Source: Nitrospirales bacterium (GTDB lineage: Bacteria > Nitrospirota > Nitrospiria > Nitrospirales > UBA8639). Taken from it: a stretch of DNA of 64,000 bases. Shown here piece by piece: positions 52,708-58,462 of this stretch (position 1 is the stretch's first letter; every line of letters starts with the position of its first letter). The position numbers were made by a program, and so were the translations under genes. The stretch is taken from positions 4,064,001 through 4,128,000 of the forward strand of contig OY820905.2 in NCBI GenBank assembly GCA_963555755.3. Direction: 5' to 3'. The notes under the pieces are model-generated. The model saw nothing but the letters and a program-made list of their open reading frames with translations, made no database searches and was not told where the DNA came from.

Positions 52708-52967
52708 ATTAATATGAAACTACTTCAAAGTGGTGTGATGTGTGGTTCCCGGCCAGAAGAAAAAAAACGTTGCTAGTCGCTGAGCACTAAGGAGTTCTTT
52801 TTCTTCACAAGCAACTAGGGACAAACTGGAGACTAGCCGATCATGAGCCAAGCAGAAAATATAGAGACCACCGGACGGATGCCCGCTTAAACCCTGGGGG
52901 CATGACGACAGGGGCGAGAAACGAAATACGAGATACGAACGACGGGATGCGAACCAGGGGAGTGCCC

Positions 52968-54765
52968 ATGAACAAACGAATCTTAGTCATCGACGATAAC
53001 AAGGCTATTCATGAGGATTTTCGGAAAATCCTCTGCACTAGTAAGAGCACCGCCAAATTGGGTGACTTAGAATCGGAGTTGTTTGAAGAGGCGGAGTCGG
53101 GGGCTCACCAAGAGGGTTTTGAGTTGGAGTCTGCCGATCAAGGACAAGCCGGGTGGGAACTGGTCAAGACAGCGGTGCAGGAAGATCGCCCGTTTGCCGT
53201 CGCCTTTGTGGATATGCGGATGCCGCCTGGATGGGATGGCGTGGATACGATCGAACATATTTGGCAGATCGACCCCGAGATGCAGATCGTCATCTGCACG
53301 GCCTATTCGGATCTTGCCTGGGAAGATGTCATGCGTCGGTTAGGGAACATGGACAAGCTGCTGATTCTTCGAAAGCCTTTTGACAACATTGAGGTGCAGC
53401 AACTGGCCACAGCCCTGTCACAAAAATGGGATCTCGCCAAGGAAGGGCGTGAACTGCTCACTGAACTGGAGCGGCGAGTCAGGCTGCGAACGGGTCAGTT
53501 ATGCGAGAAAAATGAAGAACTGGTTCGCTCCAATCAGGAGCTACAGCAGTTTGCCCAAATTGCCTCGCATGATCTCCAGGAACCCTTGCGGAAAATTCAA
53601 ACCTTTGGCGATCGACTCCGCACCAAATGTGGGGACGGCCTCGATGAGGTGGGGAAAGATTATCTGGGCCGGATGCAAGGTGCCGCGGAGCGCATGCAAA
53701 CACTCATTCAGGATTTATTAAGCTATGCACGAGTCACGAGCAAGGGACAGCCCTTTCAGTCTGTTGACCTTCAGAACATTGTCCAAGGCGTGTTGTCGGA
53801 TTTGGAGATACGTCTGGAGACCACGGGGGGGCGGGTGAATATGGACGCACTTCCCCGTATCGAGGCAGATCCACTGCAAATGCGCCAATTGTTTCAGAAC
53901 CTCATCGGGAATGCGTTGAAATATCACAAACCGAATGTGCCGCCGATTGTCAAAGTATCGGCCCAGCCCATTGAGGGAAATCTGAACCTGTCCCCAGAAG
54001 CGTCGACGGGGGAGCGGTGTTGGCAGATCGTGGTGGAAGACAATGGGATTGGCTTTGAGCAAGAATACGAAGAACGCATTTTTGCCATGTTTCAGCGGCT
54101 TCATGGTCGGGGTGAGTACGAAGGCACGGGCGTGGGACTTGCCATCTGCCGAAAAATCATTGAACGACATGGAGGAACGATTACCGCCAAAGGCGTGCCT
54201 GAACAAGGCTCAACGTTCACCATCACCTTCCCCGTGCAACACGCGCAGGAAGAATTAGCAGCGGTGCTTCAACAGTGGCTTCCACTGGCTCTTGAAGAAT
54301 TGGACCGTGTGGAGGGGGACTCGTTAGGGGTGAATGCTGAGGATAAAGGTTCTGCGCCATCCGATTTGGCTTCACCGATTTCATCCACGATCCTTGAGGA
54401 TGATCCTGATCCTCCTTTGGATCGAGCGGTCTTAGCCGACCTTCGGAAATTGGGTGGGGATGAAGATCCCGGGTTCCTCGATGCGATCATCGATCAATTT
54501 TTGCAGGATGCCCCTCGCCATGTTGAGGCCATTGAACAGGCAATGACGCAAGGAAATCCTGACGCGCTGATGAACGCAGCCCATTCGTTTAGGGGGGGGC
54601 GGAAACATGGGCGCCCAACCACTCGCCGCGTGGTGTTTGAAATTGGAAGAAATGGGTCGGCACGGGACGGTGGCTGGTTCGGATGTGGTGTTCTCCAAAA
54701 TAAAAAATGAGTGGAACCGTCTGGAAAAAGCTTTACAGACTGAAAAGACCAATCAGCTGGCCTGA
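52968..54765 (+). CDS. Hybrid REC-HisKA-HATPase-Hpt kinase, Hpt frameshifted at a G8 tract
   Basis: ASHDLQEPLR, NLIGNALKY, GTGVGL. Frame 0 stops at 54710; the shifted frame continues GNMGAQPLAAWCLKLE to TGA 54765. Confidence 0.85.
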
Positions 54766-54783: not shown

Positions 54784-55260
54784 ATGCAAATAACCGAACG
54801 AGTCGTTGGTCTGGATAATATTCTTTCGCTGAGTGGGAAAGTTGTGTATGAGGCGAGAAAAGATTTTCAACAGGCCTTCTAGGAAGCCAAAGAGAAAATT
54901 CCCCCGAAAACTCGTGCTCAATATGGAAGGGTTGACCTATCTTGATAGTTCTGGGCTGGGGATGCGTGTCGTAGGTTGTGAGCAAGCCAAGCTACTCAAT
55001 CTTGCCTTCTGTTTAGTGAATCCTGTTGGTGCCCTGAGGCAAATTTTTGATTTGGCCCAGCTTCCGGCAATGATGCCTGTGCATGACACTAAAGGGCACC
55101 TCTACAAACCAGGCATTTTTTGTGAGGGCAAGGAAGCCGCGCGCGGAAAACCGGAGTGTATGGGCGAATACATGAGGATGTGAGCACGCGGCTGACGCCG
55201 CCATCACGGAAAAGGACGGTTTTTAGAGGTGCCCTAAAGAACAAGCCCTCCGCCTGACCC
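54784..55260 (+). pseudogene. STAS anti-sigma antagonist (stop, frameshift, MITE insertion)
   Basis: MQITER..; LTYLDSSGLG; removing the MITE restores HDTKEQAL. Confidence 0.8.
55094..55234 (-). mobile_element. MITE family B, TSD TAAA
   Basis: Reverse copy with both TIRs. Confidence 0.92.
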
Positions 55261-55487
55261 CCTCCATACGGATCATACAGAATATATGGTTCTCTATGAA
55301 TTTTGTAGGAACCCCGTGCCAATAATAGAGGACCCATCTGTGGCCACTAGACCCCCAGGGAGCTCATGGGCGAGCCATCCGGGTTTCTAGATTTTTCTGG
55401 GGCTTCATCAATCCGTATCGGTCGGTTGGCCGGATTCTCCTCTGCAGGTGATGGAAGAACATCCCTTGGGAAGCGGTACTCGGGAGG

Positions 55488-55742
55488 CTCCCCCTTTGGA
55501 AAAGGGGGGGAGGGGGGATTGTACGATAACCATACCCTCACACACCAAGCTTGCACTGTCTGAGCGACTAGGGCCGCCCCCGAGTCAGGATGGGGGCCGT
55601 TGGTGCCGGCACCCGCTTTGCCCCTTCGGTTGGATCGGCAGCCACGCCGGGGGAACCCGCTTTGTGGGAGGCAAGAAATGTGCAGAACTTGCCTGTTCCG
55701 GATCAGAAAATCCCCCCAAGCCCCCCTTTTCCCAAGGGGGGA
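55488..55742. repeat. Inverted pair of CCCCCTTT..AAGGGGG palindromic units
   Basis: 55488..55520 and 55708..55742 are mutual reverse complements. Confidence 0.6.
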
Positions 55743-55902
55743 CCAGGCGGGGAATTATTCAACCCATTCACCCTCCCGGTGACGCGAAGAGCCTTTTGTC
55801 TTTGGCTACCGGCAATGGCCGGGACTCGAAAAACGAGGATTGAGCTTCACGCCACTCATTGGGCAATTGATCCGAATGCGACTCCTAGAACCATATATTC
55901 TG

Positions 55903-57931
55903 GTGCGACCAGGCAAGGCTGGTCTGATGGGAAAGGAGGCTGCGAGGACTCTTTGAAAATCAGTTCATGGTCCAGTGGGTGCAAAACCCACCCAACCAAA
56001 GCGGAGCCCGGCAGGGTGGTAGCAAGCCTTGCGCCAGCGCGGGTAACCGTTATGGCGATGCGTAGGCATGCGAGCGTATGGGCCGCAGGAAATGCAGCCT
56101 CGAAAAGTGGAATATCCTGGATGTCTAGGGGCTCGGAATCTCTGAAGACCACGGCGTCGTCGCCGGTATGGGGCAAGGCGGCGGGGCATCCGGCGGGGTG
56201 AACGACTGGGGCACGTACGAAGAGGATGATCCAGGAACCTGGGAGGCCCTCATTTCTCCCTGGGAGATACCCGGTGCCACGGGGACCCGGTGACCACTCT
56301 CCGACGAACACGCGGACGCGGGTGCCTGCGTGACTCGGTGTAGAACAAGCACTCGCCTCAGGGTAGGCCGACGGCAAGGGGAACCGGAGCTGCGGCTGAG
56401 GGGGATGAGGGAGTCGGAGGGCGGCATAGGAGCGACAACGTCGGGGAACGGGGTGGTGCCTGGACCGGACCGAGCAAAGGCTGCCCGTGTTGATAGGAAC
56501 GTCAGGAGGGAACCATGACCAAGGCATTGATGTGGGATTCCATGTCACCGGAACTTTTGACGGTAGCGGAACGAGCGAAACGGGAACCCGAAGGACGATG
56601 TCACGCCTTGGCCCATCTCATCGATGTGCCAGCTCTGACACGCGCCTACCGACGACTCCGCAGGAATGCCGCGGTAGGTGTGGATGGTATCACCAAGGAG
56701 CAGTATGGGCAGGAGCTGGAGCGGAATCTCCAGGATCTGCATCACCGGCTGAAGACGAAGCGGTATCGTCATCAACCGATTCTCCGGGGATATGTGCCAA
56801 AGGGGCAGGGTCGGCACAGGCCGATTGGGATATCGGCGACAGAGGACAAAGTGGTCCAAGGGGCGCTGCGGGACGTATGGGAGGCCATATACGAGACGGA
56901 GGTTACCGATAGCTCGTATGGGTTTCGACCGAAACGCGGTGCGCATGACGCGCTTCGGACTTTGAACCGAGCGGGGCATGGTGGGGAAATGAACTGGATC
57001 GTGGAGGCGGACATCGTCTCGTACTTTGACAGCTTGGATCGCACCAAGCTGAAGGAGATGATTCAGAAACGGGTCGCCGATGGGGCGCTCATGCGGCTCA
57101 TTGGCAAATGCTTGAATGTGGGCGTGCTGGACGGCGAGGTGTATTCCGAGCCGGACGTGGGCACGGCCCAAGGCTCGGTCCTCTCCCCGCTCCTCGGGAA
57201 CATCTACCTCCATTACGTGCTCGATCTCTGGGTAGAATCCGAAGTGAAGCCACACCTCCGGGGGAAGTGCATCTTCGTCCGGTATTGTGATGACTTCATC
57301 TTTGGTTTCGAATGCCAGGACGATGCGGAGTGGGTGATGCTGCTGCTGGGAAAGCGGATGGGAACATATGGACTGACCCTGCATCCGGACAAGACTCGCC
57401 TGTTGTACTTTGGGCGACCGTTCAAGGGGCAGCAGGCAGGCAAGGGGCCGGCCAGTTTCGATTTCCTCGGGTTCACGCTGTAGTGGAAGCGGTCCCGATA
57501 TGGACGCTGGATCTTGGCATTCAAGACCCGAGGTGCACGCCTCACGCGGGCCATTCGGTCTGTGTACGACCGGTGCCGACGCCATCGGCACCGGTCGGTG
57601 AAGGAGCAGCACATGGCGCTCGTGAGGCACGTGCGCGGCCACATGAACTATTTTGGCGTGAACGGGAATATCCGTAGCCTGCATCTTCTTCTGGTGCAGG
57701 TTCAACGTGCCTGGTTCAAGTGGCTTCGGCGTCGCAGCCAACGGACGCGCCTCACGTGGGAGAGGTATCAGGACCTGTTACGGGACTTTCCTCTTCCCCG
57801 TCCACGGATCGTCGTCCAGATCTGGGGGCGGTAACCCGCGAGCCATATCAGCGGAGGAGCCGGATGGTCGAAATGTCCTTGTCCGGTTCTGGCGAGGGCC
57901 TCGGCTGGGTGACTGGCCGGGGCTACTCTAC
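55903..57931 (+). mobile_element. Group II intron
   Basis: 5' GTGCG; domain V GAGCCGGATG..GTCCGGTTC; domain VI ending TACTCTAC; internal RT ORF. Confidence 0.93.
56515..57834 (+). pseudogene. ltrA: Group II intron RT/maturase with amber stop at 57481, no endonuclease domain
   Basis: RPIGI, SYGFRP, ADIVSYFD, GTAQGSVLSPLLGNIYL, YCDD, FLGF*; the maturase continues in frame. Confidence 0.9.
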
Positions 57932-58047
57932 TATGATCCCTCCATACTCGCCTCGACGACCTGACCGACAATCTCTTTAGGTCATTGGTTGCGGCTCATT
58001 TCTTTCCAATGCTACCATGACTTTCCTGACATCAAAGGAGAGTCCTT

Positions 58048-58302: not shown

Positions 58303-58462
58303 CTCAATCAGGTGTCCTTCTATGGTTACTACTTAGGCGGATGGACTGAAGGCCGAAGGCGTTTAGGTGTTAATCATGAGCGATCCTACAACACTTCGGG
58401 CATTTTGAGCGATAACCTTCAGTCTTTAGCCTTCAGCCTAAATCCCTGAGGAGTCACATTCT

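Follow-up and report, generated by a model that had tools for sequence, protein, structure and literature searches.

The locus lies in a near-complete genome of 4.62 Mb in two contigs, at C1:4064001-4128000; this whole stretch of 64,000 nucleotides is called the window, and positions without a contig prefix count from its first base. Within it, a short non-coding mobile element, a MITE, carries a group II intron within its right terminal inverted repeat (TIR). The features referred to below are as follows.

55262-55269, no strand: left copy of the target duplication; the element is missing at the syntenic locus of G006
55270-55293, plus strand: left 24-bp TIR, an exact and unoccupied intron target, on the leading-strand template
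55270-55902, no strand: main part of the 641-bp non-coding MITE (type B641), with ISL3-type ends
55887-55902, plus strand: 5' exon, the inner 16 bp of the right TIR, with IBS2 at 55891-55894 and IBS1 at 55897-55902
55903-57931, plus strand: group II intron of 2029 nt, class E-like, no endonuclease domain
56107-56110, plus strand: EBS2 (GUGG), 4/4 pairs with exon positions -9 to -12 (CCAT), one of them a G-T wobble
56134-56139, plus strand: EBS1 (CGGAAU) in a hairpin loop, 6/6 pairs with ATTCTG, one of them a G-T wobble
56143, plus strand: putative EBS3 (U), mismatched to exon position +1 (T); its alignment column pairs with +1 in 9/11 homologues with a found 3' junction
56154-56184, plus strand: stem-loop whose terminal loop holds a candidate alpha-prime at 56171-56174 (candidate alpha at 56006-56009; pairing judged by eye)
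56515-57834, plus strand: RT/maturase ORF of 439 codons with a YCDD motif; an in-frame stop (TAG, 57481-57483) separates RT7 from domain X
57853-57931, plus strand: domains V (five-base GAAAU loop) and VI (bulged A)
57932-57939, plus strand: 3' exon, the outer 8 bp of the right TIR
57940-57947, no strand: right copy of the target duplication

Deletion of 55903-57931 leaves an element of 641 bp in which the 24 bases at one end recur at the other in inverted orientation without a mismatch (24/24), which bears out the intron borders given in a preliminary description of this DNA. The 8-bp target duplication placed there outside the repeat is also present, as CTCCATAC at 55262-55269 and again at 57940-57947, and an 8 + 8 match beyond the intron would arise by chance with a probability of ~2e-10. 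The hidden non-autonomous IS of the same description proved to be a 641-bp derivative with two intron-free full copies elsewhere in the genome (98.6-98.8% identity, each with its own 8-bp duplication). One partial copy of the body was also found, and the three full copies have different 8-bp duplications. The element is therefore a MITE in being short, non-coding, bounded by TIRs and a target duplication, and present in several dispersed copies; the two ORFs tested in its body gave no Pfam match. In a genome of the same genus (G006; L217) the syntenic locus is present and the whole element is absent. The 641-bp body was not found in the 114 other family genomes searched, this genome being the only one of 115 to carry it, and the inner 16-mer of the TIR was found with at most one mismatch in 39 of those 114. 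The insertion point falls within the final codons of a STAS-domain gene that was already broken (54785-55269; a stop and frame breaks) and that appears intact in G006. Just before the MITE, this gene is interrupted by a very abundant repeat of ~150 bp (roughly 55091-55238; ~190 matches). Two further features were observed in the vicinity: a hybrid histidine kinase at 52902-54710 in which a frameshift appears to have truncated the Hpt domain (24.2 bits to Pfam Hpt, over positions 2-39 of an 84-position profile), and, at 58317-58460 downstream of a thioredoxin-like gene, a dispersed repeat (~30 matches, ~80% identity) that is common in same-genus genomes.

Several MITE types have the same TIR, which gave 78 matches in the genome at up to 6 mismatches; among the TIR-bearing elements, a 308-bp type accounts for 18 full-length copies. 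The TIR matches the ends of an ISL3 element at C1:3186452-3187876 at 21/24 (right end) and 17/24 positions. The transposase of that element matches PF01610 (E 1e-45), with its ORF split over two frames, and the remaining ISL3 elements of the genome have ends that differ from this TIR. GG tips and an A+T-rich 8-bp duplication are hallmarks of the ISL3 family. The elements studied here share the GG tips, and the exact 8-bp duplications on 20 TIR elements are 64% A+T; the 641-bp body differs from the family in being non-coding. An IS1595 element inside one TIR pair was considered as the autonomous partner and rejected, having its own ends and more than 30 copies elsewhere. These likenesses suggest that the autonomous family behind the MITE is likely ISL3.

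A second intron family interrupts the 308-bp MITE as well, at 123/124 and 207/208, in positions that appear to follow directly on hairpins, as is usual for class C introns. One copy is truncated at 158 next to a third intron-like sequence, so that this one MITE family is host to at least two intron families. The MITE/intron loci concerned are C1:4584715-4587056, 3054536-3060616, 1007580-1009850, 1022143-1029102 and 3614067-3616205. A csrA-like gene is split by the 308-bp MITE (C1:3545914-3546500, 1009851-1010728; 1022143). Its 3' part occurs at two loci, following the intron-bearing TIR at one and an empty TIR at the other; 12 kb downstream of the second locus is the corresponding 5' part, an arrangement that suggests recombination between MITE copies.

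The window intron has the hallmarks of a group II intron: a 5' end of the GUGYG type (GTGCG), a 3' end of the AY type (AC), and domains V and VI. It matches RF02005 at 119.7 bits, and a match to RF00029 at 57855-57931 ends exactly at the intron border and scores 38.7 bits, just under the gathering score of 40. The intron had been called endonuclease-less, and the 439-aa RT+X protein indeed has no En match. In the accessible part of PMC3753933, a five-base domain V loop and an alpha-prime at the end of the Id3 stem-loop are given as class E/F features; the window intron has the five-base loop, and its candidate alpha-prime, paired by eye, is within a terminal loop. A tree of 17 RTs was built with one class E reference and no labelled class F or g; one RT of this genome, from which no YxDD-bearing frame was extracted, was omitted. 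In this tree an intact relative of the intron protein (P0139) groups with a Sinorhizobium meliloti class E protein (L145, 45% identity) at 100/100, apart from RmInt1 and RmInt2. The L145 intron is 99% identical to the pRmeGR4b intron, which is assigned to class E in the accessible part of PMC5894124. Membership of class D is contradicted by the 27-31% identity to RmInt1/RmInt2, the separate clade and the absence of the motif LX3AX3PXLF[V/A]HW. On these features of RNA and protein, we class the window intron as class E-like. Minimum-free-energy folding of the whole of domain I was uninformative (z = -0.36), and the EBS elements were placed by alignment and covariation instead. A scan for promoters and terminators gave chance-level hits only.

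To the idea that the intron homes to TIRs, the preliminary description had attached checks that included the pairing of an EBS with ATTCTG and the flanks of any other intron copies. EBS1 pairs with this hexamer at all six positions and EBS2 adds four pairs out of four. The genome contains three copies of the intron with the same boundaries and 99.7% identity (C1:3024663, 3543877 and 4119903), and all three sit at the same base of the TIR, between the 16-nt 5' exon AGAACCATATATTCTG and the 3' exon TATGA(T/C)CC, the sequence beyond differing. They lie in three different MITE bodies, and the flank common to the copies is confined to ~16-19 bp before the intron and 5-8 bp after it. Homing to the TIR is thus supported both by the position of the copies and by the pairing. 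The EBS3/IBS3 pairing of the IIB type is lacking, with U facing T at +1 in all three copies.

The placement of the EBS elements was assessed across homologous introns. A scan for the intron 5' motif gave 3 viral and at least 121 metagenome stretches. The homologue set comprised 128 rows, with the copies of this genome, L010 and two loci added by hand; 98 were long enough and 42 passed a strict domain I motif filter, of which 41 were distinct and 40 remained after the second copy from this genome was dropped. Among these 40 homologues, taken from the matches listed and with relatedness ignored, EBS1 formed 4.38 Watson-Crick pairs per intron compared to 2.06 +/- 0.20 after shuffling, and EBS2, in a six-base window, 3.38 compared to 1.87 +/- 0.20. 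The observed values were reached by 0/10000 shuffles each, and shifted registers gave lower values. An exon motif, GnATAGG...A, found at 43/126 of the homologous loci listed, was considered as another IS end and rejected, because the loci have no shared flanking ORFs and EBS covariation explains the motif. Four of the related introns (L025, L043, L053 and L059), all from metagenomes, are ORF-less and 782-785 nt long, with an EBS1 of UGAAUU and a GATAGG-type IBS2. At L116 and L124, two group II introns stand in tandem: the 5' exon of the homologous intron either coincides with the 3' end of the other intron or follows it directly.

The pairing leaves room for a different reading of the target, in which the intron has no specialisation for TIRs: its specificity would be relaxed, and the TIR would be the commonest sequence in this host that fits the EBS loops. 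When wobbles are allowed, 1406 sites in the genome fit all ten EBS1 and EBS2 pairs, and 32 of the 44 exact CCATnnATTCTG sites are TIRs. The EBS3 mismatch and the occurrence of relatives at ~70% identity in unrelated sites (among the matches listed) also fit this reading. Against it stands the occupation by 3/3 copies of one identical 16-mer among 1406 permissive sites, for which P=0.03 even among 70 element ends. A second argument comes from other data. In X8, a single 2067-nt contig covers 55885-57939 with both junctions and 33 differences, and in X12 and X15 the contigs enter the intron from 55886 or 55887; the matched stretch of exon amounts to 16-18 nt in each of X8, X12 and X15, less than the 31-letter rule for bridging demands. 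The TIR exon is thus joined to the intron in three other studies. Short pieces only were found in X13. The substitutions G56135A (X12, X13 and X15) and G56107A (X12) turn both wobbles into Watson-Crick pairs with this TIR, that is, the EBS variants fit it better. X15 contains, in addition, a more distant intron with another exon. We therefore regard relaxed specificity as unlikely and favour recognition of the TIR itself. The range of this target appears to be limited: among the matches listed, 0/123 loci from outside this genome with the intron 5' motif (~65-78% identical where alignable) use this TIR, so the target belongs to a narrow sublineage. The DNA of the intron was found in 2/60 other genomes, as partial matches only, and in 1/114 within the family. 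The junction pattern had no exact match in the 114 other family genomes, many of them fragmented, and one-mismatch matches stood at the level of a reversed control.

The RT/maturase ORF contains a stop that the preliminary description had missed. The TAG is codon 323, an amber codon at the boundary between RT and domain X, and is present in all three copies. Read through with X, the ORF passes TIGR04416 at 304 bits (cut-off 300). N3K, L7W, L122W, F130V and Y323-stop are common to the three copies and affect residues that are invariant in seven relatives; the four non-stop lesions are T-to-G changes. An intact RT/maturase is thus found in none of the three copies. The protein is intact in P0139 and in P0001-P0006 (the latter six at 85-95% protein identity), and X8, whose contig is probably that of P0139 judging by the equal length, has T at 57483 and hence a sense codon 323. 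No intact cognate protein was found in the genome, where the next best RT reaches 43.6% identity in a frame that breaks off. Suppression of the amber codon by a dedicated tRNA was considered and rejected, as none of the 46 tRNAs found by ARAGORN, which could miss a pyrrolysine tRNA, has a CUA anticodon. The lack of both an intact cognate protein and a CUA tRNA counts against retrohoming by the present copies, and their five shared changes make it probable that the three have lost their autonomy.

A:T-to-C:G transversions dominate the differences between copies of this intron, of the 308-bp MITE (17/35) and of an IS4-like element (11/29). A transcription-born T-to-G signature peculiar to the intron was therefore rejected, this change being the commonest in the other two elements also. 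The spectrum of the multi-copy elements is mutT-like, although a MutT homologue passes its cut-off.

The shared lesions raise the question of how three copies arose. The three could descend from one ancient insertion that passed between MITE copies by DNA recombination or gene conversion, in place of repeated retrohoming. This would account for the stop and the four other lesions being common to all copies, and also for the absence of a matching target duplication at copies 2 and 3 and the presence elsewhere in the genome of a duplicate of the right flank of copy 2. The differences between copies are likewise not tree-like with respect to X8, copies 1 and 2 sharing three states and copies 1 and 3 sharing two, which points to gene conversion or polishing. 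A shared flank of ~16-19 bp on one side and 5-8 bp on the other, as between the three MITE bodies, is too little for RecA-type transfer. Gene conversion thus accounts for the shared lesions and not for the new sites, and all three copies are oriented as fork-primed retrohoming predicts. We consider multiplication of a single insertion by recombination very improbable as the whole explanation. That the assembly or its polishing has placed one intron at several repeat ends is hardly credible. The repeats are 99.7% identical, and mixed polishing could give non-tree-like differences, but short-read contigs of three runs (X1, X2 and X5), possibly from the source sample, contain the window junctions, the copy 3 junction and the stop, with an intron depth roughly 1.9-2.6x that of unique flank. 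In addition, the genome is near-complete in two contigs and the duplication around the window copy is intact. Repeated retrohoming into different MITE bodies thus remains the favoured source of the new sites.

To relate the copies to replication, we examined cumulative GC skew, which has its minimum at 2.71 Mb and its maximum at 0.57 Mb, with dnaA at 2.92 Mb. All three intron copies are oriented for the lagging-strand template. Exact 16-base targets are present at 22 of 70 element ends, and 19 of these 22 are empty; occupied ones number 3/10 in the lagging-template orientation compared to 0/12 in the other, which is not significant with three copies only (P=0.08). Group II domain V matches genome-wide lie on the lagging-strand template in 31 of 35 cases (39 listed minus the four weakest, from many families; binomial P=3e-6, the copies not being independent), a strand bias to which co-orientation with transcription could contribute. 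These counts qualify two earlier statements. The left TIR, presented as an identical unoccupied target, is exact and empty, but it lies on the opposite strand with respect to replication, among the 0/12, and is thus likely a disfavoured target. The gain of two sites per IS copy applies to the window copy only, where both ends are exact, and is not general. The TIRs of the two intron-free sister copies vary at positions 14-16, with an IBS1 mismatch at the right end, and in the 308-bp MITE one end is exact and the other a variant (EBS2 3/4). No TIR element of the genome has both ends occupied.

The position of the intron, the EBS/IBS pairing and the three copies in three MITE bodies are direct observations. 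From them we conclude with considerable confidence that an endonuclease-less class E-like intron, 8 bp from the tip of an ISL3-type/MITE end repeat, reached this site by EBS1/EBS2-guided retrohoming. Transcription of the outward-pointing intron would come from read-through that starts within the MITE or upstream of it, and the intron RNA would splice with the help of its own RT/maturase. At a replication fork, reverse splicing would then insert it into the lagging-strand template of an empty TIR, where a nascent strand could serve as primer for copying it. The genome has targets in both orientations, since the ends are inverted and common to several element types. In the history that seems likeliest to us, the intron was spread by an ancestor that was intact or leaky, and the copies later underwent some gene conversion; since the shared flanks are below 20 bp, new sites in different bodies would still need retrohoming.

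For the host element, the insertion parts the outer 8 bp of the TIR from the inner 16 bp, and we think it probable that this impairs transposition of that MITE copy. The immobilisation of the host by its intron, as originally put forward, is plausible. It fits the finding that no intron-bearing body is duplicated together with its intron, whereas the recreation of a GG-tipped end by the 5' end of the intron (18/24 to the TIR) could permit some residual movement. A bolder scenario seems to us rather doubtful: the amber-stopped intron would still have retrohomed to new TIRs, by read-through, by a two-piece RT + X or with a non-cognate protein of <45% identity, and would brake the whole ISL3/MITE family via one 16-bp end, the TIR variants at IBS positions being escape mutants.

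Homing of an endonuclease-less intron to IS inverted repeats has a precedent, and the idea put forward for this locus was already in print. According to the accessible part of PMC4615759 (Martinez-Rodriguez et al. 2014), all seven RmInt2 copies in Sinorhizobium meliloti GR4 lie in ISRm17 inverted repeats, a habit that gives the intron twice as many targets, with one at least on the lagging strand. The strategy is repeated in the accessible part of PMC5894124, which adds that such introns limit IS spread. The window intron resembles RmInt2, as described in the accessible texts, in being endonuclease-less and IIB-type, in having all copies in IS inverted repeats, in its imperfect EBS/IBS pairing and in the two-base linker between IBS1 and IBS2. 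In contrast, RmInt2 is a class D intron whose protein is 28-31% identical to that of the window intron, and it is inserted ~12 bp within the repeat, faces the interior of the IS and is found at either end (loci L180-L186), whereas the window intron lies 8 bp from the tip and points outwards. The window intron is also class E-like with a broken protein, and occupies three kinds of non-coding ISL3-type MITE. RmInt1 in ISRm2011-2 provides a further parallel in the accessible part of PMC5894124, being En-minus, with a multicopy IS as host, a lagging-template bias and a limiting effect on the spread of that IS. Its protein is 27% identical to that of the window intron, and it lies inside the IS, where the block on spread is tied in that text to low splicing; the window intron splits a DNA end, which would be beyond repair by splicing. 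Class E introns such as S.me.I4 of pRmeGR4b share the RT+X protein without En in the accessible parts of PMC5894124, PMC3552965 and PMC3753933. The best plasmid matches to the window intron protein are 45% identical and include the disrupted intron on pRmeGR4b; compared to S.me.I4, the window intron forms a separate subclade at 45% identity. In the full-text literature searched, which mostly excludes subscription journals, we found no report of a class E intron or of ISL3 ends in homing to IS inverted repeats. The present case thus departs from RmInt2 in the class of intron, in the family of IS, in its outward orientation at 8 bp from the tip and in having non-coding MITEs as hosts.

The model of intron mobility is unchanged by this case unless the shared stop reflects mobility without an intact cognate protein. 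The genome offers a natural test bed, with 70 related ends, graded EBS matches and both replication orientations, and an intact 97%-identical relative exists. Together, these results add an independent origin, with a class E-like intron, ISL3-type ends and outward orientation, to a strategy for which one published case, RmInt2, was found, and support the idea that IS inverted repeats serve repeatedly as a niche for introns that lack an endonuclease.
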